Under the pieces are notes generated by a model. It was not told the origin of the DNA, searched no databases, and worked only from the letters and a program-made list of their open reading frames with translations. Below, one piece after another: positions 45,501-62,240 of a stretch of 64,000 nucleotides of DNA; position 1 is the first letter of the stretch; each line of letters begins with the position of its first letter. A program made the position numbers and the translations under genes. Source of the stretch: an uncultured Gammaproteobacteria bacterium (lineage in GTDB: Bacteria > Patescibacteriota > Patescibacteriia > Patescibacteriales > UBA12465); contig CAZPPI010000002.1 of the NCBI GenBank assembly GCA_964588435.1, forward strand, positions 3,542-67,541, written 5' to 3'.

Positions 45501-48500
45501 GGTTGTGAACTATTTATTAATAGTTATGATAATTTTTCAACTCCAGCTCAAGTAAATAGTTCTGACTATTGTGCTGGTGAATGTGTTGGTTACGACGTTT
45601 ATATTGCTAAAGAAAATTATTTTAATCCAACAGAAGCTCAGAATTTAATTCCTAATTCAACTACTAAATGTGCTCAGTCTGCCGTTGGTTGTAACGAATT
45701 TACTAATTTAGATGCAGTTGCTAAGGGTGGCGAGGGAAAAGAATATTATTCTGAATTAAAGCAATGTATCAAGCCAAATTCTGGGCAATGTGCTAATTTT
45801 TATACCTGGGAGAGCTCTGCTGGTGGTTATCAAATTAAAACTTATAGTTTACAAAAAGACAATAATAATAATCCTTTAATCAACTATGGCGATCAAGCTT
45901 CAGGTGACTGTAGCGATATCTTTGGTCTACCGCTTAGCGATCCTCGTTATAATCCTGATTGTAGAGAATTTAGAAACACTTCCGGCCAGGTTTCCTATCG
46001 TTTAATTTCAAGAGTCATAACTTGTTCAGATAATTGTTTCAGTTATCGTTTAAATAGCAATAATATTCATCCGACCGCTAAAACCCAGGCTGAATGTAAT
46101 AGTAGCAGTGATGAAACTTATTGGAATAGTTCAAATTCTACTTGTCTTACTTGTTTAAATGGCGGTAAGTGGGATACAAATCAAAATGCTTGTGTTTATC
46201 AAGCGATCCCTGGGGAAGGAAAATCTTGCCAAGCCTCTCAAGTCGGCTGTCGGGAGTATAATGGTAATCGTGGTAATGATGTTCGTTTAATTGCCAATTA
46301 TGATTTTGAAAATGGTCTTAGTGGTTGGTATTCAAACTGTACTGATGGAGTTGACTGGAGCCCAGTTGCTAATAATCAACAAGGAAGTTCACTATTCTAT
46401 AATTCTTCCGCTAGTTCCTGTGAATCGTCTGGTGGTGAAAAGGTTGCTAAGATAAAGCTTGGTTTAGAAATTAAAGCTGGAAGAGCTTATAGTTTGAAAT
46501 TTTTAGCTCGTTCTGCTGAAGCTAATATTTTAGAAATTTATTTTGAGAGTGTTGACGGCGATAGATATTTCTTTAATTTATCGGCGGTGGCTGAAAGAGA
46601 TGGCGCAGTATCAATTAAGGGTGGAAATGAATGGGCTATTTATCAAGTTAATTTAGAAAATGTGACTGAAACCCTAGGTTTTGATGGCACTTTAAATATT
46701 TCTGCTAGTCATGATTTTTATATTGATGATTTGCTTTTAACTGAGATTAGTAATCGTTATTATTTTATTAAAGATTCAATTAAAATTCCTGATGTTTGTT
46801 ATTATGATAATTCAGGAAAATATCAAGGCGCTGATTATAATCTAGGCTGCTCTCAATATAAAGACAAAGATAATTATATTCATAATTTACATAATTTTAC
46901 CAAGCTTTGTCCTAGCTCTTCGATTGGTTGTGAACAAATGATTACAACTAATAATTATACTTCGCCCCAGGCTATGTCTTGGAATGTGAATAATTTAGGA
47001 CAATCTTGCGACCCTGGCGATGAAGGGTGTTTAACAGTTGAAAGAGATAAGATAATATATGTGGTCTATGATAAATCAAAATCTTGTCTTGCTAATGACA
47101 TCGGTTGTAGCCGAATGGGGGAGGGTCTTGGTTCTGGTTATGATATTAGTTGGTCTGATGTTTTTAAATTGAATAACCCTAATAATTACAATCAAACTTT
47201 ATGTGCTGAGGGAGATTTAGGTTGTGAGGAATATCGAGATATTAATAGTGGTGGTCTAAGTTACTTTAGAAATCCAGCAAATAATTTATGTGTTTATCGT
47301 TCCAGTAGTAATCCTGAGATTTCTGGTAAGGCTTGGTATAAAGTTCCAGTAAAAAGATGTGATTTAAATAGTAATGGCTCGATTGAAGGACTTGAAGTTG
47401 GGGGGACAATTTGTTCTAAAGATGAAGATTGCGTTTCAGGAACTTGCGTTGTTGATAACAATGATTATACTTGTTCAGTTTCCTATTTAAAAACTATTGG
47501 TTATGGTGGTTTAGGGGCGGCAATCCCTGTACCTGATAAATCGGTGGCTTTGTGTGATGCCGCCGCCGCTGGTTGTACAGAATATATTGATCCAGTTAGT
47601 AAATTTAATCCTAATTTAGTAAAAAATCCCGAATATAATGATGGTGGCAAGGGTTGGGGTGAAGATATTTGGCCTCAAGTTAATGGTAATCCAATAGGTA
47701 AAACTGAACAGGTCATTAGTTTAGAGAGAAATAAACTTTATGGTTTTAGAGCGACGGATAAGAGTGGGGGTGTTGTTGACGGAGGAGTTAGCCTTAAATT
47801 TATTGGTGATGTTAGAATTTTAGGCGAGGAGACTATCGATACGATAAAAAAATTAGGAACTAGTAATAATTTTGGCGATGTAACTAAATTATTAACTATT
47901 AATGCCAATTATCCTTATATTATTTTTAATTCTTTGAGTAATTATTCAGCTCTCTTATCGGGCGGGGACGCAAGTTATATTATTGAATTAAAAGAATTAG
48001 CAATTGACTATAATATTAGAGGGGATGTTGATGGTAGTAGTTGTAATGGTTTAGTAAATTTTGATACTGGTTGTATTTTATTTAATGAACGCTCAATTGC
48101 TGGGGCAGCTGGTTTGGAATTAAATAAATTTAATGCCTTGGCGGGTGATGGTGTGCCAGTCATTAGTTATAGCCCCTATAATGCCAATAAACTATTAAAA
48201 GTAAGACCTGATAGAACTTGTGCTTCTTGGCTTTCTTGTACTTCCTATGCTTTAAATAGTGATGGTTCAAAATCTTGTAGCTCAGTTGCTGAATGTAATC
48301 TATTAGATGATAAAAATGAGTGCCTTAATTTTATTGTCAGACCAGAAGCTGAAAGCATTGTTTTTGATGCAGAAAAAAATCGTAATGCGACCGGTTACGC
48401 TTTGGCGGGAAATTATTATTTTAACAACATTAAGGAAGTTGGTCTTAATACTAGTGTTCGTTATGACTTTGAAGAAAATATTCCTCCTTTGAGCTGTGTA

Positions 48501-50942
48501 CGGGCCAATAGTGCTGGAGAGCCCTTGATTAATGACACCGGCTTTTGTTCCTTTGATGAAAACATAATTAAAGACAGCTTGATTCGTGAACCGGGACTAA
48601 TTAGCTATCCGGCTAAAGGAAAAACTTATTTAAAAGTTTCTCCTCTTCAAGCAATTTCTCCTCATGCAGGAGGCTCATATGTTGTTTTGCCAGAAGCGGG
48701 AGAATATTATTTAAGTTATTTACTTAATACTCAGAATTCTAATACTTCAGCTAAAGTATCAATTGAAAACGTTTCTAATAGAAATATTATGCATGACATG
48801 GGAGTAGAAGAACAAGCCCCTAATGGTTGGGAGAGAAAAATTCATAAAATAACAACAGTTAAGGATAATGTTAAAATTAGAATTTATTTAAGTTTAGTGG
48901 AAACGGGTAGTTCGGGGCCAGTTTATTTTGATGATATAAATATTGAAACAGTTTTAAGGGTGGCTGAGAATGATTATCGTGCTCGTGATTGTCGACTTTA
49001 TCCGAACTCTTCTAGTTTTGGTTGTCAGGAAGTTGAAAATTCGGTGGTTAGAAATGGGGTTGAGGGTTATTGTCTTGAATATGATTTAGCTAATTCAAGT
49101 GTTTGTCAACTCTGGATGCCAATTGATAGAATTGCCTCGTCTAAAATAAATAGTAATCAGCTTGGTTATAATGGTAAATACCCTCTTAGTTATTGTGCTT
49201 TGGCTAACAGTAATTTTCTTTATCTTGAAAAAAGAGAAGCGGCTGTAGTTAAAGAAGAAAGTATTAGAAGAAATAGTGATGATTATTTAGATGTTCGTGT
49301 TTGTTATTATCCGGGAACAGCTCTTAATTATTGTCAGTCAATGTTTTATGCTAGTAGTTCGATTGAAATAATGCCAACTTCAACTCCTTTAGGACAACCA
49401 ATTAGTACTTCTGGCGAATATAACGTTACCATTACCTATGATAATAACAATCCTGATAGTGAGCCAATTATTACTGTTGGTGGTCAACAAGATTTAACTC
49501 AAGAAGAGCAAGAAGAATTACCAGAAAATCTTGTTATTGTTGGTGGAAAAGTTAAAGATTTAGGGAATATTCCGGTGGTTTCTGAATATTGTGGTGATTC
49601 AGGAAATTATTTCTTAATGGTCACCCAAGATTTGAAACAAGAAAACGGGTTATTTAAACGAGATGATGTGGCCATCACCTACCTTTGTTTACCAATTAAT
49701 AATTATAATTATTATACTCCTGATAGAACCTTTAGATACGTAGCGACAAAATCAGAACCGATAACAACTTTTAGTGGTGTGCAGAAAGTTTATCCAATTA
49801 CTGATGGTTGGTATTTAGCTGATGGTTTTCATAACGCTGCGGGGATAGCCCCAGAAAATAAAAGAGGGGGTAGTCCTGGTGGTTTTGATGAACTTTATAA
49901 TGCTGATCCACCTCTTCGAGTTTTGGATTTAAATTATTCAATACCAGCTGGAGAAGATGATTTAAAAAAGATTTCAAGTAGTGATCCTGATGAAGTTTTT
50001 CGTTTAACTTGTGATAAATTTGTTGAAGCCGTTTCTGGTTCCGGGGATAATATGGCTTGGACTAGCAGAGTTGCGCTTGGTTCAAATTATATAGTTACTT
50101 CAACAAATCCGATTATACGATACAATGGTTATATTAGACAGATTGGCGACATTCCTTTCGGAGCAGCTTCTTGGCCCGATGATTTTAATTTGGCAAAAAG
50201 TGAGAGGGTTCCTTTATATAATCAATACTCAGCTAAAAATAAAGAAGATGTTTTTGCTGGACGTCCTTATGGTTGTAACGCTAAAGATGCTCAGGGGGTC
50301 GCTAACTGTTCTAGTATTGGCTATTGCAGCGCTAATCCCGACGTTTATTGTTTAGTTGATAATACCGGACTATTTAATGCCAATACTTATGATATCACTC
50401 GTCATTCTTGTGGTACTTGGGGAACCTGTAAACCTCTATGGACCATTCCTACAGGAGCCTATCAATCTAGCGTGCTAATATCTTATCTTAAAGATTACCC
50501 TAGCGCCCTTAGTCAATTATTTATCCAAGCTCCAGTTGCTTATGAGTTTAAAGATGATGCTGGGGGTTATGTTAGTGCTACTGGATATTATAATTCTAAT
50601 ATGGCTGGGTCTAATCCTGGAGTTTCAAACCTTAAACTTTATAAAGCTGATACGAGCATTGAATTTAATGCTGATTCTGGAATTAGAGCTGGTAATTACC
50701 GCTTGGAATTTAATTCAAATATTGACTCTGATCATCAACCACTGAAAGAAATATTTATTGATTGGGGGGATGGATTTAAGCAGGTTATTATTGGTGAGGA
50801 TTCAAAGAGTAGCTCATCTGAAGCTAGACATATTTTCTACCATTTCTATCCTGATAACAGAGCGTTAGATAGCACAATTATCAGGGTTAGAGTTTATGAT
50901 AATTGGAAGAAAGGATCAACTGATGCGATTTTAACAAGATAA
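42594..50942 (+). CDS. giant (2782 aa) secreted Cys-rich surface protein with CBM4/9-like jelly-roll modules
   Basis: Signal peptide ending VKAQA. Uninterrupted 8.3 kb ORF with more than 100 Cys. At least three modules with the N-x-[DE]-F-E-x-G-x-x-G-W carbohydrate-binding signature: around nt 44815-45290 (IKISGSNGAGFESS...), 46295-46750 (NYDFENGLSGW...FYIDDLLLTEI) and 47620-48010 (NPEYNDGGKGWGEDIW...). Confidence 0.85.
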   Translation: MKNFLFFLEDKKHKNLKNCYWLFLIFIFAFSFSFFQIQEVKAQAVVTDPGAMAQRTVESVKQTFWQKLGTALKKAGSIAFNRTLQSSLNKIAYDAANYIGAGGDGQKPLFRTEGLGDYMKKIGDEAGGQFLETFVRNLDTSNATSTLSCEKRLENCLTDCYRQANGYDPADAESLKYFRDGVAAGYVGAGGQDTKGEVIVAGQACVKQCELGNTSCVSNPNNNKLGSASDVNSFNVCQPSSIEVKLKISLGLVEQNRPTGPNCTATTIINNWGDDIDKKLASISDGSFLKNIDNIFDPRANDLGIYFLARTDLSAQSKIEVDKAVLEDTKTGGWIDVRNIAGELKGTPDTAKNAEADARAIRIANFGKTTGDIFVDAANLFLNQLAISAYNNLMRKLSDKKADAGPALADPGVDPNFSSVSSMREKTRVLIETNFESKADYSVLSELAACPNPGNPGPNNCVIDDRFMQAIVEQKTVGEAIKEGYLNSNWKVEKDVFASAYNNHYSLRNIKILRKYRIVPLAWEVAIEKAFEDEEIPENVTLGDLVACFSENDEFDKFSTNFKSSDISWCQGLVDPNWVLKAPLNYCGQSGSGSHILNMTMIPSLSSSEQLIITRADDYCADNQSCIKESKEGACDLYGYCTEDRRTWNFESDSCSPINNTCQSFINTSNQATASYLENTLDYGDCNADSAGCRRYSLFGKYNENGSVSWNLFNNLFFNKNLVSCNSENEGCSELMRIKPTWGFNFVTDSAFNFFGLNQEPAGSKLGPWGVLAGANAQIINTNEEAPDFTGNSKAIKISGSNGAGFESSSEVFPENLQILINQDYTLSADIFLFSGDRVQMFLNPGDKQVSTVVNQSGYWQRVSLTINTDSGFYEPKFSFVGYGSSVSFYVKNIKFELSGVETTYNNYGSYISRAGSLLSARFSQKLLPAYLHETCYVDSVSASKDYTLKSDAPAICSNYARQCNQDEVGCELFINSYDNFSTPAQVNSSDYCAGECVGYDVYIAKENYFNPTEAQNLIPNSTTKCAQSAVGCNEFTNLDAVAKGGEGKEYYSELKQCIKPNSGQCANFYTWESSAGGYQIKTYSLQKDNNNNPLINYGDQASGDCSDIFGLPLSDPRYNPDCREFRNTSGQVSYRLISRVITCSDNCFSYRLNSNNIHPTAKTQAECNSSSDETYWNSSNSTCLTCLNGGKWDTNQNACVYQAIPGEGKSCQASQVGCREYNGNRGNDVRLIANYDFENGLSGWYSNCTDGVDWSPVANNQQGSSLFYNSSASSCESSGGEKVAKIKLGLEIKAGRAYSLKFLARSAEANILEIYFESVDGDRYFFNLSAVAERDGAVSIKGGNEWAIYQVNLENVTETLGFDGTLNISASHDFYIDDLLLTEISNRYYFIKDSIKIPDVCYYDNSGKYQGADYNLGCSQYKDKDNYIHNLHNFTKLCPSSSIGCEQMITTNNYTSPQAMSWNVNNLGQSCDPGDEGCLTVERDKIIYVVYDKSKSCLANDIGCSRMGEGLGSGYDISWSDVFKLNNPNNYNQTLCAEGDLGCEEYRDINSGGLSYFRNPANNLCVYRSSSNPEISGKAWYKVPVKRCDLNSNGSIEGLEVGGTICSKDEDCVSGTCVVDNNDYTCSVSYLKTIGYGGLGAAIPVPDKSVALCDAAAAGCTEYIDPVSKFNPNLVKNPEYNDGGKGWGEDIWPQVNGNPIGKTEQVISLERNKLYGFRATDKSGGVVDGGVSLKFIGDVRILGEETIDTIKKLGTSNNFGDVTKLLTINANYPYIIFNSLSNYSALLSGGDASYIIELKELAIDYNIRGDVDGSSCNGLVNFDTGCILFNERSIAGAAGLELNKFNALAGDGVPVISYSPYNANKLLKVRPDRTCASWLSCTSYALNSDGSKSCSSVAECNLLDDKNECLNFIVRPEAESIVFDAEKNRNATGYALAGNYYFNNIKEVGLNTSVRYDFEENIPPLSCVRANSAGEPLINDTGFCSFDENIIKDSLIREPGLISYPAKGKTYLKVSPLQAISPHAGGSYVVLPEAGEYYLSYLLNTQNSNTSAKVSIENVSNRNIMHDMGVEEQAPNGWERKIHKITTVKDNVKIRIYLSLVETGSSGPVYFDDINIETVLRVAENDYRARDCRLYPNSSSFGCQEVENSVVRNGVEGYCLEYDLANSSVCQLWMPIDRIASSKINSNQLGYNGKYPLSYCALANSNFLYLEKREAAVVKEESIRRNSDDYLDVRVCYYPGTALNYCQSMFYASSSIEIMPTSTPLGQPISTSGEYNVTITYDNNNPDSEPIITVGGQQDLTQEEQEELPENLVIVGGKVKDLGNIPVVSEYCGDSGNYFLMVTQDLKQENGLFKRDDVAITYLCLPINNYNYYTPDRTFRYVATKSEPITTFSGVQKVYPITDGWYLADGFHNAAGIAPENKRGGSPGGFDELYNADPPLRVLDLNYSIPAGEDDLKKISSSDPDEVFRLTCDKFVEAVSGSGDNMAWTSRVALGSNYIVTSTNPIIRYNGYIRQIGDIPFGAASWPDDFNLAKSERVPLYNQYSAKNKEDVFAGRPYGCNAKDAQGVANCSSIGYCSANPDVYCLVDNTGLFNANTYDITRHSCGTWGTCKPLWTIPTGAYQSSVLISYLKDYPSALSQLFIQAPVAYEFKDDAGGYVSATGYYNSNMAGSNPGVSNLKLYKADTSIEFNADSGIRAGNYRLEFNSNIDSDHQPLKEIFIDWGDGFKQVIIGEDSKSSSSEARHIFYHFYPDNRALDSTIIRVRVYDNWKKGSTDAILTR

Positions 50943-51574: not shown

Positions 51575-54169
51575 ATGAAAATTAATATTTTCAAGAAAAT
51601 AAATAACTCCCTGGGAAAAAAATCAATAATTATTATTAGTGTTTTGGTTTTTTTGGGCTTATCTTTAGCCGCTCCGGCTTCTGCTGATTGGGCAATCACA
51701 GTATTTGGTGGTATCTTAAAAATAATTATTGGCGGGGTTGGACTTATTTTAATTTTAGCTATTAGAGCTTTAGTTTATGTTGCTCAATATTCAACTTTTT
51801 TAAACTCGGGCGCCGTTACCCTTGGCTGGGTTATAGTTCGTGATCTTTGTAATATGTTTTTTGTGGTCGTTCTTTTAATTATTGCTTTTGGAACAATTCT
51901 AAATATAGAAAAATATAATTATAAAAAGTGGTTGCCAAAATTAATTTTGATGGCAATTTTAATTAATTTTTCTAAAACTATTTGTGGGGTTTTAATTGAT
52001 ATTGCTCAAGTGGTGATGCTTACTTTTGTTAATTCTTTTAGCACTATTGGTGCCGGAACCTTGGTTAATGTTTTGGGGATTACCGATATTTTGCAAATAG
52101 CAAAAAGTGGTAATGAAGATATTGGTTTTTGGACGGTTATCGGTGCTTATTTACTTGGCTTAGCCTACGTTATTGTGTCTCTAATAGTAGTTATTACGAT
52201 GATATCGATGCTCGCTATTCGTATTGTCATGATTTGGATTTATGTTGTTTTATCACCTTTAGCTTATCTTTTGTCAGCTTTTCCCGGGGGTCAATCTTAT
52301 GCTTCAAAATGGTGGACTGAGTTTACTAAAAATTTAATTGTTGGACCAGTTTTAGCTTTTTTTCTTTGGTTATCTTTTGCTGCTTTAACCAGTGATCAAG
52401 TAAGAGATGCTCAAACAATAGATGAGGCTAGTAGATTAGAGCAAAATAAGTTATTAGGTTTTGATCCTGATGAGGCCTCAATCGAAACTAAAGCTTCTAG
52501 TCCTGGAGCTTTAATTAAATTTATCATTGCAATTGGGATGCTTGTTGGTGGTCTTAAAATTGCTCAAGAGGTTGGCGGTGCCGCCGGTTCTATGGCAGGC
52601 AAGGGAATGGCAGCGGTTAATAAAGCGGGCAAGATTGGTTTAGCGGGTGCGGCGGCGATTACTGGAGTAAGAGCGGCTAAGGGAATTTATAAAAATTATA
52701 GCTCTGCCAGAAAATCAGCCCGAGAAGATAAATATAAGAATGCCGCAGTTAAGATGGCGGATGGAATTGGGAGGGCTAAAAAAAGTGTCGGCGGAGCGGT
52801 TACTGGTGGTTTGCAAAAAGTTAAAGATAGTACTTTTGGTAGAAGAGAGGCAAAAGCTAAAAAACTTCAAGCTGAGGCTAGAGTAGAGAGTACAGAAATC
52901 GATACAATAAAACAGAACCTTAATCAAAAGAAGGGTGTGGTCGGTGATTATCAGTATGATGAGGGTGTTAAGAGTTGGCGTCATAGCATAACAGGAATGG
53001 TAACTGGAGAAGAAAGAGTTAGAGAAAAGGCTGATGAGATTATTAAAGCTAAAGATGACGTTGTTAGCGCTAAACAAACAGAGGCAGAGAAACTACATTT
53101 CAAACAACAAAAAATAGATGATGTTTTGAAATATGGAGCCTTAGCTGCTGGAGGCATAGCTGGACTTGCCCTTGGCGGCGTCCCAGGACTTCTTGTTGCT
53201 GGAGGGGCCGCAGTTGGAGCTTCGCGTGGTTATGATAAATTTAAAAATGCTGGTAAAACCGATTTAGGGATTGCTTCTGGATTTCGTCTAAAGGAGATTA
53301 AGAAGGAAAAAGATGCTTTGAAAGATGAGGATAATGGAAGTGTGATTGCTAAGATGGATGATCGTACTATTAGCGCTTTTGAGAGAGCAGCTGCGGCTTT
53401 AGAAGCGATGGATAGAGGTTTGCTTTCCTCTGAACAAGCAGAATCTAAGAAAAAAATGATTGCGAATGAGATTGGCGGAGTCGATGAGAATGGTGATTTT
53501 AAGGATAAAAAAGTTGGTAATTATTTTGAATCGATTGCTGAAAGAAAAAATATTTCCGCTTCTTCTGATTTTCAAGATTTAAAAAGTGAAAATCCTGAAG
53601 TAAAGAGTCGAGCTGAAAGAAATGTTAGAGATAATGTTGAAAAAGGTAATTATAGCCTAGAATCTCTTGACGTAGGAGCAATTAGAGCGATTGGTCCTCA
53701 ATTAGTTGCCGCGATGAAGGCTAAAGACTTTGGCGCTCAATTTACTGCAATGAAAGACCAAGCTAAAAAGCGAGAGATTGTTGAGATGTTAAAGAAACTG
53801 GTTAATAAAGATACTAGCGGATTGCCAAGCGGTAGTATTGAAAAAAACAATGCTGAAGCGGGAAAATTAGAGGCGATGAAGAGATTGAATCAAGTTACGG
53901 ATTTAAATACGGCAACGGTTGGAATTTCTGATCCCGTAGATAGACAGGCTAAAAAAGAAGCGATTTTGGCTGATTTATCTTTTACTCAATTGGCGGATGT
54001 TTTTAATGGCAATGATAAAAAACAGCAAGATGCAATTGTTGAAGCTATACAAAAGTCTAGTCGTGAGGATAAACTTAGTATTTTTGTGACCGCAGAAAAA
54101 TCTTTAAGGGGAACATCTCAGGTTGCTAAAGATTTGCGCTCTGAGGCTAAGCTTAATTTAGAAGTTTGA
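51575..54169 (+). CDS. VirB6/TrbL-like polytopic T4SS inner-membrane protein with ~500-aa hydrophilic C-terminal extension
   Basis: Signal/TM followed by 6-7 TM helices in about 300 aa, with an architecture like TrbL/VirB6/ConG. Then a Gly/Ala-rich linker and a long charged C-terminal domain. Confidence 0.55.
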   Translation: MKINIFKKINNSLGKKSIIIISVLVFLGLSLAAPASADWAITVFGGILKIIIGGVGLILILAIRALVYVAQYSTFLNSGAVTLGWVIVRDLCNMFFVVVLLIIAFGTILNIEKYNYKKWLPKLILMAILINFSKTICGVLIDIAQVVMLTFVNSFSTIGAGTLVNVLGITDILQIAKSGNEDIGFWTVIGAYLLGLAYVIVSLIVVITMISMLAIRIVMIWIYVVLSPLAYLLSAFPGGQSYASKWWTEFTKNLIVGPVLAFFLWLSFAALTSDQVRDAQTIDEASRLEQNKLLGFDPDEASIETKASSPGALIKFIIAIGMLVGGLKIAQEVGGAAGSMAGKGMAAVNKAGKIGLAGAAAITGVRAAKGIYKNYSSARKSAREDKYKNAAVKMADGIGRAKKSVGGAVTGGLQKVKDSTFGRREAKAKKLQAEARVESTEIDTIKQNLNQKKGVVGDYQYDEGVKSWRHSITGMVTGEERVREKADEIIKAKDDVVSAKQTEAEKLHFKQQKIDDVLKYGALAAGGIAGLALGGVPGLLVAGGAAVGASRGYDKFKNAGKTDLGIASGFRLKEIKKEKDALKDEDNGSVIAKMDDRTISAFERAAAALEAMDRGLLSSEQAESKKKMIANEIGGVDENGDFKDKKVGNYFESIAERKNISASSDFQDLKSENPEVKSRAERNVRDNVEKGNYSLESLDVGAIRAIGPQLVAAMKAKDFGAQFTAMKDQAKKREIVEMLKKLVNKDTSGLPSGSIEKNNAEAGKLEAMKRLNQVTDLNTATVGISDPVDRQAKKEAILADLSFTQLADVFNGNDKKQQDAIVEAIQKSSREDKLSIFVTAEKSLRGTSQVAKDLRSEAKLNLEV

Positions 54170-54241
54170 TAAAGCCAAGAGAAGATCCTTTCTGTTAGAA
54201 TATTTAATGATAAGCTATTGTTAAAAAACAAAATTTAAACT

Positions 54242-55408
54242 ATGCCAACAAATATAACTGATAAACAATTTAATGAGAAATATGTCGACTTACCCGAGGA
54301 GGCAAAGTTCTTTTTTAGTTCTGAAAAAAATGGCGCAAATATTTTAGCCCTTGCTTCTGAATATAAGTTAGAACCAGACATTATTTATTCTTTAAATTTT
54401 TTAGCAGTTAATTCCGGTTTTGACTTTTCTCTACTTGAGGAAAAAATTAAAACTTTAAATTTAAGTGGCATAAGCTCAACCAGGTTTTGGCAGGATTTTA
54501 TTGGTCGCTTATTATTGCCAATTTCTGAGGCGATGGAAGAAAGTTCTGACGGGAAAATTAATATTGCTAAGGTTTTAAAAAGCACGGGGGCAAAATTGGA
54601 AAAATATCAAAGTTATGTTAATCAATTAAGAAATGAAATTGAGGATGATATTTTAAAAGCAGCCGAAGAAGAGGTTGAAGCTTATAAAAAGAGTTTTGAT
54701 ATTAAAGAAGAGAGCCAATATATTTTTAATCTTTTATCCGAGGATATTTTAATAGTTTTAAATTCTAAAAGTTTTGAAGCGGCCGCCGCTTTAAATCGTA
54801 GTTTAATTTTTCTCTTATTTAATGCCGAGAATTTTAAGGATGAAGCTTTGAGAAAAATTTTTGCTAACAAGCAATTAATTGGTGAGGAAAAAATTTCTGT
54901 TGACAATAAAGAAGTTATGCCAACAGTTTCTGCTTGGCTTAAGGATTTTATCAAAAAAAACAGTTCAAGTTTATTTGATGATTTAATTTTAGCTCAATAC
55001 CTAAATACCTCTGAAAACGCTAAAGTTCTTCAACCAAAAGAAAAAGAGCTTTTAGGTAATTTAATTCGTTTTTATAAAAATATTGCTTTTTTTCCAGAAA
55101 GCATGAACGAAATACCGCCTCAGAAATGGCAAATATTCCCTTTTGACGCGACTAGTTATTGGCAAGAGATTGAGGGTTCAGTAAAAAATAAAAAACAACT
55201 CGGTTTACCAACGGAACCAGAAATAATTGAAGAGGATGTTGGGGAGAGTAACGATGTCCTAAGTGAGAAAGATTTTAAGCCGGAAAATTATGATGATAGT
55301 GCGGAACTGAGAAATTTACGAGAGTTATTAGCTTCTTTCCCGCCCGCTAGTTTAGAAAGAAAAGCGATTAACGAAGAAATTAAAAGATTACAACGAGATA
55401 AAAAATAA
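54242..55408 (+). CDS. hypothetical cytoplasmic protein (388 aa) within the T4SS-like locus
   Basis: No TM and no recognisable motif. Its stop lies 1 nt from the next gene's start. Confidence 0.5.
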   Translation: MPTNITDKQFNEKYVDLPEEAKFFFSSEKNGANILALASEYKLEPDIIYSLNFLAVNSGFDFSLLEEKIKTLNLSGISSTRFWQDFIGRLLLPISEAMEESSDGKINIAKVLKSTGAKLEKYQSYVNQLRNEIEDDILKAAEEEVEAYKKSFDIKEESQYIFNLLSEDILIVLNSKSFEAAAALNRSLIFLLFNAENFKDEALRKIFANKQLIGEEKISVDNKEVMPTVSAWLKDFIKKNSSSLFDDLILAQYLNTSENAKVLQPKEKELLGNLIRFYKNIAFFPESMNEIPPQKWQIFPFDATSYWQEIEGSVKNKKQLGLPTEPEIIEEDVGESNDVLSEKDFKPENYDDSAELRNLRELLASFPPASLERKAINEEIKRLQRDKK

Positions 55409-55409
55409 A

Positions 55410-56819
55410 ATGTTTGATTATTTGCAAAAATTCAATAATTTACCAAATACTTTACGCGATAAAGTTTCTTCACCGACAGCAATGCGGGCAGTTTCGGCTT
55501 TGGAATTAAAATATAAAGTTGATTTAGCCGCTCTGGTGATGAAAGTGATGGCAAAAACTTTAAAAGTTAAGGATTTGCCAGAGTATTTTATTAATGAATT
55601 TTCTTTGAGCCAGGAGGACGCTCGCGCTTTAAACGACGATATTTTAAAAGAAATTTTTGCACCGGTTAGTGAATATTTATCTTTAGACGAAACTAAAAAG
55701 TCGCCGAAAATTAATGAATTTTCTTCAACTTTAGTTAGAGAGTTTGGCTTATCTTTGCCGAGTGAAGATCTTTATTCTCGCTTAAATAATATAATGTTAA
55801 CTTTTTTAAAAGGAGTTAGAAGCAAAATAGATGCTAAAAGCGCTTTGATGAAAAAGGTTGAGTTTGGAGGATTAGGCTTAACTCAGGAAGAGGCGGATCG
55901 AGTTTTTAAATTAGCTGAAAAAAGGGATATTCAAAAAGATTCTTTAGTTATTAAAGACCTTCCAATCGTTGAAGAGGAAGTAAAGAATTCTTCGCTTGAT
56001 CAAGCTCTTATAGATCAGGCGGTAAAAGAAGAAATTTCAACCGCGCCAATATTAGAAAAAAGTTCGAAAGAAAAATTGGATAAAATTATTATGGCGGCGG
56101 AGATGAATTCAGTCCCAGTTTATGATTTAAAGAAATCTTTAGTTGAAAAAACAGATATAGATAAAGAATCTTTATTACCAAAAGAAGAAAAACAGAATAT
56201 CTTGCCAGTAACAGAGAATAGGCTTAAGCTTGAGGAAAAATTGGAAGTAAAAACCGGATTAACTCAAGAAGAGACTCAGGCAGAAATTCGAGAACCAGTT
56301 CAAGAAACAATACCAGTACCGGCTCAAGAAGAAGTTCAGACAAAAATATCGCCGATTGAAGAAGCTGATTTAAAGAAAGATTTAAAAGGGGAGCAAGAAA
56401 ATTATGTTGCCCCAACAACTTTAAATTTGAATTTTAAACGCCCAGCGCCGACTTCAAATAAACCAAGGATGGAAGATATTAAACCGGTAGCAAAGGCAAT
56501 GAGTCCGATTGATGAATTAGCGTTTCTTGATTTAGTAAATTTTCGCCGTCTTTCTGATAATTCTGATGAAGCAGTTTTGAAGATTTTTAATAAAATTAAA
56601 TTGTTGGAAAAGGATGGCTATGATAAGATGGTTTCGGGGGTAAAAGCTTGGCGCCAAAATGAAGTTAATCGTTTATATGTAAAAATTGGCCAGGAGACTT
56701 TACTTAAAGGCCTGTCCTTGAAAGAGGTTATTGTTGAACGTCAAAAAAGAAACATGCCTTTTTTAAAGGTTGAAGAAATTAATGCAATTTCCAAATTGAA
56801 TGGAAGGTTATCTTTTTAA
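55410..56819 (+). CDS. hypothetical charged protein (469 aa) within the T4SS-like locus
   Basis: Lys/Glu-rich, with no TM and no NTP-binding motif, so it is not a VirD4 or VirB11. Confidence 0.5.
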   Translation: MFDYLQKFNNLPNTLRDKVSSPTAMRAVSALELKYKVDLAALVMKVMAKTLKVKDLPEYFINEFSLSQEDARALNDDILKEIFAPVSEYLSLDETKKSPKINEFSSTLVREFGLSLPSEDLYSRLNNIMLTFLKGVRSKIDAKSALMKKVEFGGLGLTQEEADRVFKLAEKRDIQKDSLVIKDLPIVEEEVKNSSLDQALIDQAVKEEISTAPILEKSSKEKLDKIIMAAEMNSVPVYDLKKSLVEKTDIDKESLLPKEEKQNILPVTENRLKLEEKLEVKTGLTQEETQAEIREPVQETIPVPAQEEVQTKISPIEEADLKKDLKGEQENYVAPTTLNLNFKRPAPTSNKPRMEDIKPVAKAMSPIDELAFLDLVNFRRLSDNSDEAVLKIFNKIKLLEKDGYDKMVSGVKAWRQNEVNRLYVKIGQETLLKGLSLKEVIVERQKRNMPFLKVEEINAISKLNGRLSF

Positions 56820-56822
56820 AAT

Positions 56823-57254
56823 ATGCAGCAATTTATCGTACCACAATTTATTGATGTTGAAGCAAAAATTATTGGCCCGATTACCGCTCCTCAATTTTTG
56901 ATTTTACTTGCAGCTACTTTAATAATAGCTCTTTGTTATCGCCTTCTTCATTTCACTCCTTTCCTAATAGTTACTGTTATAGTCCTTGGTTTAGCTGGCA
57001 CTTTCGCCTTTGTTAAAATAAATGGCCGATCTTTTCATTATTTTATTTTAAATTTATTACAAACAACTCGCCGACCCAATGTTAGAGTTTGGAATCATAA
57101 AATTGTCGTTAATGAGCAAACAGAAAAAACATCAATTCAGAAAATTGACTATAAACCTCTACCAAAAAAAGAGTATAAAAAATCAAGACTAGCAGAGATC
57201 TCTTTGATCGTTGATACTGGTGGTAAATATAGAGGGGAAAATCAGAATCTTTAA
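56823..57254 (+). CDS. VirB3-like small two-TM protein (ConD/PrgI-like position)
   Basis: 143 aa with two TM helices (ITAPQFLILLAATLIIALCY and FLIVTVIVLGLAGTFAFV). Sits directly upstream of VirB4, which is the conserved VirB3-VirB4 arrangement. Confidence 0.45.
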   Translation: MQQFIVPQFIDVEAKIIGPITAPQFLILLAATLIIALCYRLLHFTPFLIVTVIVLGLAGTFAFVKINGRSFHYFILNLLQTTRRPNVRVWNHKIVVNEQTEKTSIQKIDYKPLPKKEYKKSRLAEISLIVDTGGKYRGENQNL

Positions 57255-57263
57255 AATATAATT

Positions 57264-57929
57264 ATGGCTAAAAATAAGATTAAAAATTCAACCCAAGAGC
57301 ATCTTGATATCGCTGAAATCAGAGATGATATTGTTGTTATGAAAGATGGAACCTTACGTTCTGTTATTATGGTTTCTAGTATTAATTTTTCTTTAAAGAG
57401 TGAAGACGGTCAAAACGCAGTTATTGGCGCTTATGTTCGCTTTTTGAATAATTTAAATTTTCCTTTACAAATTATTATTCAATCCAGAGAATTAGATATT
57501 GATAATTATTTAGAGTACTTAAAAATAAAAGAGAAGGAACAGACGAATCGTTTATTAAAAGTACAAACGGCCGACTATATTGAATATATTAAAGAATTAA
57601 CTTCGTTAGGAAAAATAATGAATAAAAGATTTTTTGTCGTTGTTCCCTATAGCGCCTTGTCAGATAAACGAAAAGGATTTTTTAGTCTCTTAGGCGAGGC
57701 TCTGCGACCAGCAACAATTTTAAAATTAAAAGAAAAAACTTTTAGAAAATATCAGGAAATGCTTGATCGTCGGGTTGATAGTGTAATTGGTGGGCTAGAA
57801 TCTATGGGGGTAACAACGACGAGACTTGATACCCAGAGTTTAATTGAATTATATTATAAAACTTATAATCCAGAATCATCAAGAAACCAGGAATTACCAG
57901 ATTTAGATAAGATGAGAGTTGAGCGTTAA
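57264..57929 (+). CDS. virB4: VirB4/TrbE-family ATPase, N-terminal domain fragment (in-frame with next ORF, separated by a single TAA)
   Basis: HLDIAEIRDDIVVMKDGTLRSVIMVSSINFSLKSEDGQNAVIGAYVRFLNNLNFPLQIIIQ matches the VirB4/CagE/TrbE N-terminal pattern. It ends at TAA 57927-57929, in the same frame as the ATG at 57939. Confidence 0.6.
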   Translation: MAKNKIKNSTQEHLDIAEIRDDIVVMKDGTLRSVIMVSSINFSLKSEDGQNAVIGAYVRFLNNLNFPLQIIIQSRELDIDNYLEYLKIKEKEQTNRLLKVQTADYIEYIKELTSLGKIMNKRFFVVVPYSALSDKRKGFFSLLGEALRPATILKLKEKTFRKYQEMLDRRVDSVIGGLESMGVTTTRLDTQSLIELYYKTYNPESSRNQELPDLDKMRVER

Positions 57930-57938
57930 TTTTTATCT

Positions 57939-59825
57939 ATGATAAATTTCAATAAGAAAGTAACAAAAAAAATAAAGATGAATGAGCCAGTTTCTCTCAG
58001 AAAAAAAACTGAGGCTTCTTTAATTGAGAGAGATCCTCTTCTAACTAGAGAAATTATTGAAGAGGAAAAGACTTTTCGTCGTGGAGTTTTATCGGTCCGT
58101 GATATTATTGCTCCCTCTGCTTTAAAGGTTGAAACAAATAATATTCGTTTGGGTAATAAATTTTTACGAACAATTTTCGTTGTCGCTTATCCGCGTTATA
58201 TTTCAGTTGGTTGGTTTGCTCCCATTATTAATTTAAATGTTACGTTTGATATTTCGATGTTCTTCTATCCGATTGCTAGCTCTATTGTTCTAAAACAATT
58301 AAAGGATAAGGTTGGTAATTTAGAGGCACAAATTATTGCTGATGCTGACAAGGGAGCTGCTCGTGATCCCTTAAGAGAAACGGCTTTACGAGATATTGAA
58401 TATTTGCGAGATGCTTTAACTCAGGGGACGGAAAAATTTTTTCAATTTGCCCTTTATACTACTTTATATGCTGATAATATAGAAGATCTCGATCGTTTGT
58501 CAGACCAGGTTGAGGATATTTTCGGTTCACGTTTGGTCAATTCTCGTCGGGTTTATTATCAGGCTGAACAAGGCTTTAATTCAACCTTACCACTAGGAAA
58601 TGATGAACTCTATATTACTTTTAATATGAATTCTTCGCCGATTGCCTCTTCTTTTCCATTTATTTCATCGGAGTTAACTAGTGACAGCGGAATTTTGTAT
58701 GGTATCAATCGTCATAATAATAGTTTAATTATTTTTGATCGTTTTTCTTTACAAAACGCTAACTCGGTTGTTTTTGCTACCTCTGGGGCGGGAAAAAGTT
58801 ATGCAATTAAATTAGAAATTTTACGTTCCTTGATGCTCGGCACTGAAGTTATTGTTATTGATCCAGAAAGGGAATATAAACATCTTGCTGAAGCTGTTGG
58901 CGGAACTTATGTTAATATTTCTTTATCATCTGATAATAAAATTAACCCTTTTGATTTACCTAGTTCAATTGGCGGCGACGCTAGACCAAAAGATATTATT
59001 AGAAGTGCGGTTATTACAATCAAGGGCTTGATTAAGTTGATGATTGGCGGTCTTAATTATGATGAAGATTCTTTGATGGATAGAGCATTACTCGAAACTT
59101 ATGCTAAGAAAGATATTACCCCAGACGCTGATTTGTCAAAAATTGAGCCGCCAATTATGTCAGATTTAGAACAGGTATTAGAGGGGATGGAGGGCGGAAA
59201 TAATCTAGTGTCGCGACTAAAAAAATATACCAAAGGAACTTTTGCTGGTTTATTAAATAACCAAACTAATGTGCAAATGGATAATCAGTTGGTTTGTTTT
59301 TCCGTTCGAGATTTAGAAGATGAGCTTAGACCGATGGCGATTTATACAATTGTTAATTATATTTGGAACATTGTTAGGAGCGAGATGAAAAAAAGAATTT
59401 TAGTTATTGATGAAGCTTGGTGGATGATGCAAAATGAGGATAGTGCTAAATTTATTTTTGCCCTTGTTAAGCGTTGTCGTAAGTATTATTTAGGAGTTAC
59501 AACAATTACTCAAGATGTTAATGACTTCTTAACTTCACCTTACGGTCAAGCGATTGTTAATAATTCTTCTTTACAGATTTTGATGAAACAAGCTCCGGCC
59601 GCAATTGAGCAAATTCAAAAAACTTTTTTACTTACTGAGGGTGAGAAATATTTATTGCTTGAATGTGGAATTGGTGAGGGAATATTTTTTGCTGGTAATA
59701 AACATGTAGCGATGAAAGTCGTTGCTTCTTATACCGAGGACCAATTAATAACCTCTGATCCACGTCAATTGCTAGAAATCGAAGAAGCAAAGAAAGACTT
59801 TGCGGAGAGTCAGGACCTAGAATAA
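57939..59825 (+). CDS. virB4: VirB4/TrbE-family T4SS ATPase, C-terminal ATPase portion
   Basis: Walker A VVFATSGAGKSYAIKL, Walker B RILVIDEAWWMM, and a C-terminal VirB4-type domain. 221 aa + 628 aa gives a typical VirB4 length. Confidence 0.8.
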   Translation: MINFNKKVTKKIKMNEPVSLRKKTEASLIERDPLLTREIIEEEKTFRRGVLSVRDIIAPSALKVETNNIRLGNKFLRTIFVVAYPRYISVGWFAPIINLNVTFDISMFFYPIASSIVLKQLKDKVGNLEAQIIADADKGAARDPLRETALRDIEYLRDALTQGTEKFFQFALYTTLYADNIEDLDRLSDQVEDIFGSRLVNSRRVYYQAEQGFNSTLPLGNDELYITFNMNSSPIASSFPFISSELTSDSGILYGINRHNNSLIIFDRFSLQNANSVVFATSGAGKSYAIKLEILRSLMLGTEVIVIDPEREYKHLAEAVGGTYVNISLSSDNKINPFDLPSSIGGDARPKDIIRSAVITIKGLIKLMIGGLNYDEDSLMDRALLETYAKKDITPDADLSKIEPPIMSDLEQVLEGMEGGNNLVSRLKKYTKGTFAGLLNNQTNVQMDNQLVCFSVRDLEDELRPMAIYTIVNYIWNIVRSEMKKRILVIDEAWWMMQNEDSAKFIFALVKRCRKYYLGVTTITQDVNDFLTSPYGQAIVNNSSLQILMKQAPAAIEQIQKTFLLTEGEKYLLLECGIGEGIFFAGNKHVAMKVVASYTEDQLITSDPRQLLEIEEAKKDFAESQDLE

Positions 59826-59862
59826 AGTACAGCTAATTTTTAAAATAATTAATTTAAAATAT

Positions 59863-60477
59863 ATGGATAATAATAGAAAAAAGATTGGTATTATGTTAAT
59901 AATTTTAGGGCTTTTAATAATTGCTTTAATAATTTATTTTGGTTTTATTAAAAAAGACAAAGACGAGCCAATTATAACTGAAAACCCTGTGGTTGATTTA
60001 CCGTTACCGGCTGGAGATGACTTAACAAATCCTGGAGATATAGCTCGTTCTTGGCAACCAAATTTAAGCGCTGAAGCGGATCATGTTTTTAATGAAACGG
60101 ATTTGGAAAAACGTGCTAAAGCTTTTGCTGAGAGATTTGGCTCTTATTCGAATCAATCAAATTATAGTAATTTTTCCGACCTAGAAATATTTATGACCAA
60201 GAGTTTCTCTGATTGGACCGAATCTTATGTCGAACAGTTAAGAGAGAGTGCTCCTGGTTATGAAGTCTATTATGGGATAAGTACAAGAGCTTTAACGACT
60301 GAGTTAATTAGTTTTGATGAAGCCTCTAGCAAGGCGGAGATTAATGTTTTAACCGAAAGAAGTGAATCTTCAGCCAATGGCGGTGATTTAGAGCCTTATC
60401 AACAAAAAATACTTTTAAAATTCAATAAAGTAGCTAATGATTGGTTGGTTGACGCTGCTTATTGGGAGAAAAGATAA
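59863..60477 (+). CDS. membrane-anchored periplasmic protein, VirB8-like position (hypothetical)
   Basis: N-terminal TM (IGIMLIILGLLIIALIIYFGFI) plus a hydrophilic domain of about 170 aa, directly after VirB4. The size and topology fit a VirB8/NTF2-like bitopic protein, but no motif was verified. Confidence 0.35.
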   Translation: MDNNRKKIGIMLIILGLLIIALIIYFGFIKKDKDEPIITENPVVDLPLPAGDDLTNPGDIARSWQPNLSAEADHVFNETDLEKRAKAFAERFGSYSNQSNYSNFSDLEIFMTKSFSDWTESYVEQLRESAPGYEVYYGISTRALTTELISFDEASSKAEINVLTERSESSANGGDLEPYQQKILLKFNKVANDWLVDAAYWEKR

Positions 60478-60482
60478 AATTT

Positions 60483-61829
60483 ATGGCGGGAATGAAAAAA
60501 ATATTTTCTTGTACGAATTGTGGCGCCCAATCTCTGAAATGGAGTGGGCGCTGTTTGGAGTGTGGTTCTTGGGGAACTTTAGTTGAGGAATTACTAGATG
60601 ATAAGGAAGTGAAAAGAGAGGCATTAAAAAAGATTGCTGGCGCTGAGATGATTTCTCTTGGTTCCTTAAAGCAGGAAAAATTAACTCGTTTTAAAACTAA
60701 TATTTCTGAAATCGATAGAGTTTTGGGCGGAGGAATTGTTCCCGGTTCTTTAATTCTATTAAGCGGAGAGCCAGGAATTGGTAAATCAACTTTAGTCGCC
60801 CAGATTGCTTCCTTAGCTGGGGAAGGAGAGCTTACTGCTTATGTTAGCGGTGAGGAATCAGCTTTGCAGGTTCGTGATCGAATGGCGCGCTTAGAAGTTA
60901 ATTTCGAAAAAATTAAATTCATTTCTGAGACTAATGTGGAAAAAATCATTGCTGCTGTTTTAAAAGAAAAACCAGCAGTTTTAGTTGTTGATTCAATTCA
61001 AACAGTTTATTCCTCTTTAATTCCTTCTGAGGCGGGCGGGATTTCTCAAATTAGAACGGCGGCGGTTAAATTTTTAGAACTTGCTAAAGAAAATAATATT
61101 GCTGTCATTTTAATTGGCCACATAACTAAAGATGGCCAAGTTGCGGGTCCGAAGTCATTAGAGCATATAGTTGACACCGTCTTGTATCTTGAAAATGAGG
61201 CGGGAAGTAATCATTGTTTTTTAAGAGCAACAAAAAATCGTTTTGGTTCAGTTAATGAGCTTGGAGTTTTAGAAATGACAAGCAAAGGTTTTAAAGAAAT
61301 TAAAAATCCTGGAGCAATTTTTATTGAAACAGTTGGAGGTAATTTATCGGGTTCGGTTGTTTCCTGTGTAATGGAGGGGAGTCGACCATTTTTAGTTGAT
61401 GTTCAGGCTTTAGTTTCAAAAACAGTTTTTGGTTATCCACAAAGGAAGGCGAGCGGCTTTGATTTAAATCGTTTAGCTGTTTTAAGTGCAGTTATTAGCA
61501 AGCGAACAAAAATTAATTTAACTGCTCAAGATATAATTTTAAATTTAGCGGGCGGTTTAAAAGCTTCTGATCCCGCTCTTGATTTAGCAGTTGCTGTCGC
61601 AATTATATCTTCTGTTAGTGATAAAAAAATTTTTCGTGAAACAATTGTTTTAGGAGAGATTGGTTTAGGCGGAGAAATTAGGCCGGTTAGTAAATTTGAG
61701 CAGAGAGTTAAGGAGGCGGAGCGGCTTGGTTTTAAAAAAGTTATTGCTCCAATGGTTAATATTAAAGATTCTAAATTAGAATTTTTAAGAGTAAAAAATT
61801 TGCAAGAGATAGTTGAGCTTATTAAATAA
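60483..61829 (+). CDS. radA: DNA repair protein RadA/Sms
   Basis: C4 zinc finger CTNCGAQSLKWSGRCLECGSWG, RecA-like Walker A GEPGIGKSTL, KNRFG motif, and a Lon-protease-like C-terminal domain. Start placed at ATG 60483. Confidence 0.9.
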   Translation: MAGMKKIFSCTNCGAQSLKWSGRCLECGSWGTLVEELLDDKEVKREALKKIAGAEMISLGSLKQEKLTRFKTNISEIDRVLGGGIVPGSLILLSGEPGIGKSTLVAQIASLAGEGELTAYVSGEESALQVRDRMARLEVNFEKIKFISETNVEKIIAAVLKEKPAVLVVDSIQTVYSSLIPSEAGGISQIRTAAVKFLELAKENNIAVILIGHITKDGQVAGPKSLEHIVDTVLYLENEAGSNHCFLRATKNRFGSVNELGVLEMTSKGFKEIKNPGAIFIETVGGNLSGSVVSCVMEGSRPFLVDVQALVSKTVFGYPQRKASGFDLNRLAVLSAVISKRTKINLTAQDIILNLAGGLKASDPALDLAVAVAIISSVSDKKIFRETIVLGEIGLGGEIRPVSKFEQRVKEAERLGFKKVIAPMVNIKDSKLEFLRVKNLQEIVELIK

Positions 61830-61842
61830 AGCCAATAAAAAT

Positions 61843-61874
61843 AAAAAAAACGAGCTTGGGAGCTCGTTTTATCG
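61843..61874 (+). terminator. Rho-independent terminator after radA
   Basis: aaaaaaaacgagct-tggg-agctcgtttt is a hairpin flanked by an A-run and a T-run, so it could act in both directions. Confidence 0.75.
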
Positions 61875-61925
61875 TCAAAATTCTTGACTTAGTTTTTATT
61901 GGTTGACCTAGTTTTTTGGTATTCA

Positions 61926-62240
61926 CTAGGCCACACATTTTTTTTCAGGCAGACGGTGGTGTTTTTGAAGTGGTGCAATTATTGCTAGAGCTTTTTTTTC
62001 TGCTTTTTTGTTCAGAAAAATAAGCTCGCTCACGGTTACTAACTTGGAAGTCCGGGAGGAATGTCCTGTAAATTTCCCCACGATTTGGTTCTGGTCGATG
62101 TCGAAATGAATTTCTTCAACTCTGCCTTGTTCTCCCTGGCGAGAACATGATATTCCTGATTTGCACATGTTTAAAATAGTTTTAAATTTACAATTTGGTT
62201 TATCTATTGGTTTCAAAAATCGTTTTGATCTCAAAGTCAC
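61926..62240 (-). CDS. hypothetical protein (104 aa) in compositionally atypical region
   Basis: The only ORF over 60 aa in a roughly 550-bp GC-richer stretch. No family recognised. It may be non-coding. Confidence 0.25.
   Translation of the reverse strand: MTLRSKRFLKPIDKPNCKFKTILNMCKSGISCSRQGEQGRVEEIHFDIDQNQIVGKFTGHSSRTSKLVTVSELIFLNKKAEKKALAIIAPLQKHHRLPEKKCVA

Follow-up and report, generated by a model that had tools for sequence, protein, structure and literature searches.

Is the gene for the VirB4 ATPase of a type IV secretion system (T4SS) broken here by a stop codon, or is it naturally encoded in two parts? This question is raised by positions 57264-59825 of a 64,000-nucleotide (nt) stretch of contig CAZPPI010000002.1 (GenBank assembly GCA_964588435.1, contig positions 3,542 to 67,541), referred to below as the window. 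Two open reading frames (ORFs) lie there on the plus strand. ORF1 runs from an ATG at 57264 to a TAA at 57927-57929 and encodes 221 amino acids (aa), and ORF2 runs from an ATG at 57939 to a stop codon at 59823-59825 and encodes 628 aa. The two share one frame and are separated by a 9-nt spacer, TTTTTATCT (57930-57938), and the TAA at 57927 is the only in-frame stop across 57264-59823. The first-pass annotation, made from the sequence alone, had described the same coordinates, common frame, TAA plus 9 nt and downstream ATG, in agreement with what we found. It presented the locus as an interrupted VirB4 and left three options, a genuine two-polypeptide VirB4, a recent nonsense mutation, or an assembly or sequencing error. 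Our results favored the first of these. We consider it very probable (roughly 0.93) that ORF1 and ORF2 are a native pair of separately translated T4SS genes, one TrsD-like and one encoding a short VirB4, whose products probably form a non-covalent equivalent of VirB4, and that the stop codon is ancestral and the common frame coincidental.

Identity of ORF1 and ORF2

ORF2 (57939-59825, plus strand) is a VirB4-type T4SS ATPase of short form. In the profile search, it passed the curated threshold of the NCBIfam CD1110-family VirB4 model NF045971 (363.3 bits, cut-off 325, E 2.6e-108), covering positions 180-733 of 752, and it covered positions 292-893 of 894 in the VirB4_plasma profile. The Pfam families P-loop_TraG, AAA_10 and DUF87 were matched as well, and the crystallised VirB4 C-terminal domain (PDB 4AG5) aligned with the C-terminal ~360 residues of ORF2 (aa 245-605) at E 1.6e-44. 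The Walker A motif ATSGAGKS is encoded at 58776-58799 (plus strand, aa 280-287) and the Walker B motif ILVIDEAW at 59397-59420 (plus strand, aa 487-494). When complete ORF2 homologues were examined, Walker A (GxGKS) was present in 70 of 71 and Walker B in all 71. The full VirB4 N-terminal region was not contained in the ORF2 polypeptide, which comprises the second part of that region and the C-terminal ATPase domain; the missing stretch was matched by ORF1 in the profile search. The start of ORF2 was conserved, and in most relatives the tblastn alignments began from query residue 1 (MI[ND]F...) at the relative's own ATG.

ORF1 (57264-57929, plus strand) encodes a stand-alone protein that may be called TrsD-like or "TraC-like". 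Profile matches and the predicted fold showed it to be homologous to the N-terminal module of VirB4, corresponding to about the first 200 residues. The N-terminal parts of three VirB4 models were matched, with coverage of positions 97-233 of 894 in the VirB4_plasma profile and 10-90 of 752 in the CD1110 family profile. In both profiles ORF1 and ORF2 together tile a full-length VirB4 collinearly and with no overlap, and the earlier description of a VirB4 N-terminal-like piece followed by a Walker A/B ATPase was thereby borne out. ORF1 also matched the NCBIfam TrsD/TraD model NF041427 (33.5 bits, E 3.5e-8, profile positions 9-143 of 201). The best match of its predicted fold was the TrwK/VirB4 structure of R388, and VirB4 was the only strong fold match. 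A sequence search of PDB chains with ORF1 gave nothing meaningful (top match MutS2, E 0.099), and homology to VirB4 structures was visible at the fold level only. The Pfam family PF26593 (TraC-like) appeared in precomputed annotations of ORF1, of its homologues at three further loci (L081-L083) and of all 120 top homologues; the local Pfam-A hmmscan returned no significant match to it, and the model was possibly missing there. ORF1 is a small stand-alone protein, remotely homologous to the VirB4 N-terminus and adjacent to virB4, and by these features it is TrsD-like in the broad sense of PMC12102498.

Conservation of the two-gene arrangement

The orthologous locus was compared, with flanks of 4 kb, in 80 species-representative genomes, nearly all of them Falkowbacteria/Patescibacteria metagenome-assembled genomes (MAGs), at 58-92% aa identity to ORF1. 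An ORF1 homologue with its stop codon, followed by an ORF2 homologue, was found in 80/80 of these relatives, and an uninterrupted gene in none. The ORF1 homologues ended in TAA in 65 genomes, TAG in 9 and TGA in 6. On the basis of these equivalent stops, the TAA at 57927-57929 (plus strand) was taken as the genuine stop of the TrsD-like gene. The relative frame of the two genes was 0, 1 and 2 in 22, 23 and 35 genomes, respectively. The frame-0 share of 27.5% was indistinguishable from the expected 1/3 (binomial p = 0.29), indicating that the common frame in the window is a coincidence. The spacers varied from a 4-nt ATGA overlap (loci L057 and L059-L062) up to 89 nt, many with lengths that are not multiples of three, and on this basis the 9 nt at 57930-57938 (plus strand) were classed as an intergenic spacer. 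Several frame-0 relatives (L067-L070 and L073) contained further in-frame stops in the spacer. These results showed that ORF1 and ORF2 are two separately terminated and initiated genes, conserved as a pair and in their order.

Both genes were under strong purifying selection, as shown by the ratio of nonsynonymous to synonymous substitution rates (dN/dS), which was 0.044 for ORF1 and 0.035 for ORF2 against the closest relative (L001) and ranged from 0.035 to 0.056 for both ORFs against L001-L003. The closest of the 80 loci belonged to a Falkowbacteria MAG (92% identity), and the host of the locus is a Falkowbacteria-like patescibacterium with a chromosomal T4SS. Among MAGs carrying the locus at 62-86% identity, many had the public title "uncultured Gammaproteobacteria bacterium" (for example L002-L004 and L009-L011), one was titled "Bacillota bacterium" (L049) and one "Nanoarchaeota archaeon" (L074). 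Such records look like cases of mislabelled taxonomy or mis-binned contigs.

The separate form of the protein was also predominant among more distant homologues. A word-indexed search returned 3117 ORF1 homologues, the best 120 of which were all 218-231 aa long, and an exhaustive HMMER search with ORF1 against 50%-identity representatives returned 2379 clusters at E<=1e-3. Among the best 150 of the 2379 clusters (36-64% identity), 149 were stand-alone proteins of 132-443 aa and one was fused (P0204, 898 aa). The fused P0204 consists of an ORF1-like part (residues 9-223) and an ORF2-like part (residues 303-890) with a Pro/Ala-rich, low-complexity linker of ~80 residues between them, and the position of this linker at the break point places the gene boundary at a flexible junction. 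The break falls inside the VirB4 N-terminal region (about residue 175-230 in the full-length profiles), away from the border of the ATPase domain.

Many stand-alone TrsD-like relatives (for example P0132, P0144, P0155 and P0176) end in a C-terminal tail of 100-200 aa in which Pro, Ala, Gln and Thr are abundant. The linker of P0204 is the same type of stretch as these tails. P0198 and P0122 carried low-complexity extensions at the N-terminus instead.

Alternative explanations for the split

If only the window is considered, with its single TAA in one continuous frame, its 9-nt gap and an ATG just downstream, a recent nonsense mutation that split a continuous virB4 and left the T4SS as a decaying pseudogene would be suggested. 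We consider it extremely improbable, since the split was present in every relative, in three relative frames and with variable spacers, dN/dS was about 0.04 in both parts with the Walker motifs intact, ORF2 homologues started, at an ATG of their own, with the conserved MI[ND]F, and stand-alone homologues number in the thousands. A pseudogene or disrupted gene was rejected, as an uninterrupted orthologue was found in 0/80 close relatives and a fused one in 1/150 best distant clusters, with no relaxed selection. An assembly or sequencing error that created the TAA is a general possibility in any metagenome-assembled genome, and nothing more specific spoke for it. The identical 221-aa ORF was recovered in the Logan assemblies of three separate runs (SRR29243442, SRR8925774 and SRR29243437), which excludes an assembly error, and relatives of ORF1 at 96-98% identity were 221-223 aa long, with a stop at this place in every related genome; we therefore give an error of either kind practically no weight. 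The comparison of orthologous loci, which the first-pass annotation had itself proposed, thus pointed to a native gene structure. The genuine two-polypeptide VirB4 was upheld, and neither the mutation nor the error, nor the framing of the gene as interrupted, survived the conserved split in all three relative frames.

Two further explanations accept the stop codon as real. Programmed readthrough or recoding of the TAA could yield some full-length fused VirB4 besides the two separate proteins, and the common frame, the 9-nt spacer without any other stop and the existence of the fused relative P0204 would be in keeping with it. However, frame 0 was not conserved, its 22/80 genomes being slightly under the 1/3 expected by chance, the frame-0 relatives L067-L070 and L073 had extra in-frame stops in the spacer, and the genes overlapped by ATGA in five relatives. 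TAA is not known to be reassigned in any bacterial genetic code, which also counts against readthrough, and we regard readthrough as very unlikely. Alternatively, the TrsD-like protein could be an independent accessory factor, for example chaperone-like or regulatory, that shares ancestry with the VirB4 N-terminus and is not the missing module of the ATPase. This is improbable in our judgment. ORF2 has no counterpart of the stretch matched by ORF1 and covers the profiles only from position 180 of 752 (CD1110) and 292 of 894 (VirB4_plasma), the fused relatives carry both parts in the same order, ORF1 and ORF2 were adjacent in 80/80 loci, and VirB4 was the best and only strong fold match of ORF1.

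Several points weigh against the native pair as we describe it. The 33.5 bits of ORF1 are far under the curated cut-off of 200 for NF041427, placing it as a homologue outside that narrow subfamily. Its fold matches to TrwK were moderate, with a template modelling (TM) score of about 0.5 and 12-18% identity. No family reached significance for ORF1 in the local Pfam scan (E<=0.01), and at E<=10 the only matches were at noise level, TraC_F_IV (E 0.099) among them. The 80 genomes are related by descent and thus do not represent 80 independent events. Finally, we infer the mutual binding of the TrsD-like protein, the short VirB4 and the PrgI-like protein from their adjacency, from the existence of fused relatives and from the structure of VirB4.

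Known systems, gene neighbourhood and proposed role

The two-gene VirB4 arrangement is already published, and it is normal and conserved in Patescibacteria and in pGO1-type monoderm T4SSs. In Patescibacteria, TrsD, a remote homologue of the VirB4 N-terminus, was reported to outnumber every other T4SS component, and 1,664 copies of it adjoin virB4 (Quinonero-Coronel et al. 2025, PMC12102498). Among the MPF-FATA prototypes it otherwise occurs in the pGO1 subclass only and is without assigned function, and the TrsD homologue of Ca. Southlakia epibionticum ML1 is given there as an essential gene (PMC12102498). The word TrsD was not found in the available part of Guglielmini et al. 2014 (PMC4027160), the reference given for TrsD being homologous to the VirB4 N-terminus. 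The window resembles the patescibacterial TrsD and VirB4 pair (PMC12102498, PMC10633639) in phylum, chromosomal site, the small VirB4-N-terminus-like protein beside virB4 and the adjacent PrgI/VirB3 gene. No substantive difference was found; the window comes from a Falkowbacteria-like lineage, and its two genes happen to be in one frame.

Similar arrangements are found in Firmicutes. In TrsD/TrsE of the Staphylococcus plasmid pGO1 and in NF041427 (MPF-FATA), the gene for a ~200-aa homologue of the VirB4 N-terminus immediately precedes that for a ~620-aa VirB4. A Planococcus plasmid has "TrsD" directly upstream of a 623-aa DUF87 ATPase, and in a Pontibacillus plasmid the gene for a 274-aa hypothetical protein overlaps the start of one for a 621-aa CD1110-family VirB4, both as arranged in the window. 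However, the identity of ORF1 to the Firmicutes plasmid proteins was only 23-29%, and unlike the pGO1-type systems the locus in the window is chromosomal and flanked by housekeeping genes, not on a conjugative plasmid. It differs from full-length single-chain VirB4 proteins (TrwK of R388, PDB 7O41/7O42, and the CD1110-family and Mbov_0397-family proteins of monoderms) in that two polypeptides take the place of a single one.

Immediately before the pair, a gene at 56823-57254 (plus strand) encodes a small PrgI-family (VirB3-like) membrane protein of 143 aa with two transmembrane-like segments (aa 16 and 35). It matched Pfam PF12666 at E 1.1e-6 (29.5 bits, cut-off 27), and a PrgI homologue was found upstream on the same strand in 78/80 related loci. 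Three further ORFs (864, 388 and 469 aa; 51575-56819, plus strand) were assigned to the cluster by position only, and none of them had Pfam or NCBIfam matches. The 864-aa ORF encodes a polytopic membrane protein with 10 transmembrane-like segments, a VirB6 candidate by topology only. Homologues on the same strand upstream were detected for the 469-aa ORF in 77/80 loci and for the 388-aa ORF in 36/80, and for the 864-aa ORF in 4/80, its position being at the edge of the flanks compared. Downstream of VirB4, a 204-aa protein with one N-terminal transmembrane-like segment is encoded at 59863-60477 (plus strand); it had no significant Pfam or NCBIfam family, and a homologue was present downstream on the same strand in 70/80 loci. 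This ORF overlaps by 16 nt the listed TTG start of a RadA-like gene (60462-61829, plus strand), and RadA was found downstream of the cluster in 64/80 relatives.

The cluster is chromosomal, with 33% GC, and lies amid housekeeping genes, with MurJ, LepA, RecJ, LeuRS and KsgA upstream and RadA and a RecG-like helicase downstream. The 19 ORFs scanned, a part of those in the window, included no coupling protein (VirD4/TcpA) and no relaxase. Genes for these proteins are usually not near virB4 in Patescibacteria (PMC12102498), and for the T4SS of an epibiont it was reported that neither a coupling protein nor a relaxase could be recognised (Wang et al. 2023, PMC10633639). A giant ORF of 2782 aa (42594-50942, plus strand), with a single N-terminal transmembrane-like segment and no Pfam match, borders the T4SS-like cluster on its upstream side. 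No homologue of it was detected in the 80 loci, whose flanks end short of that position, and it possibly encodes a surface protein or adhesin specific to the lineage.

Signals for transcription and translation were also scanned. No Shine-Dalgarno (SD) motif precedes ORF2, which is uninformative, as 21 of 22 window genes are likewise without one. The leaders (20 nt upstream of 22 plus-strand gene starts) were A/T-rich, the SD-like core being missing in those 21, and translation initiation in the source genome seems to be independent of SD pairing. A promoter and terminator scan of 54000-62000 gave counts not above shuffled controls, and a weak hairpin at 57995-58014, within the 5' end of ORF2, gave no evidence of a terminator.

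For the native pair, the following arrangement is proposed. The 221-aa TrsD-like product is, in sequence and predicted fold, a soluble counterpart of the first ~200 residues of full-length VirB4, and with the short VirB4 it would probably form a non-covalent complex equivalent to one VirB4 subunit. Association of the two polypeptides is suggested because the fused relatives provide a Rosetta-stone argument. Anchoring of VirB4 to the inner membrane was reported to be a function of VirB3 (PMC12102498), and the TrsD-like module would probably lie close to the membrane and dock the ATPase on the VirB3/PrgI-like product of the preceding gene. A spacer this short, like the ATGA overlaps of some relatives, would favor coupled production of the two proteins in roughly equal amounts, and the stop codon would be an ancestral gene boundary. 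A more speculative proposal, which we think rather unlikely to be correct, is that the TrsD-like protein is a detachable module controlling when and where the ATPase docks on the PrgI/VirB3-VirB6 platform, for example on host contact. The long disordered tails of many relatives might mediate such control. If this is true, it would be a docking control step that single-chain VirB4 systems do not have.

The locus also illustrates a risk in annotation, that a pair of ORFs in the same frame matching one VirB4 could be miscalled as a T4SS pseudogene. Since Patescibacteria and pGO1-type monoderm systems as a rule have VirB4 in the two-gene form, the T4SS in the window should be taken as intact. Epibiotic growth of Ca. 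Southlakia epibionticum was shown by transposon sequencing (Tn-seq) to require the T4SS cluster (Wang et al. 2023, PMC10633639), so that in the one species tested the patescibacterial T4SS is a system on which this way of life depends.
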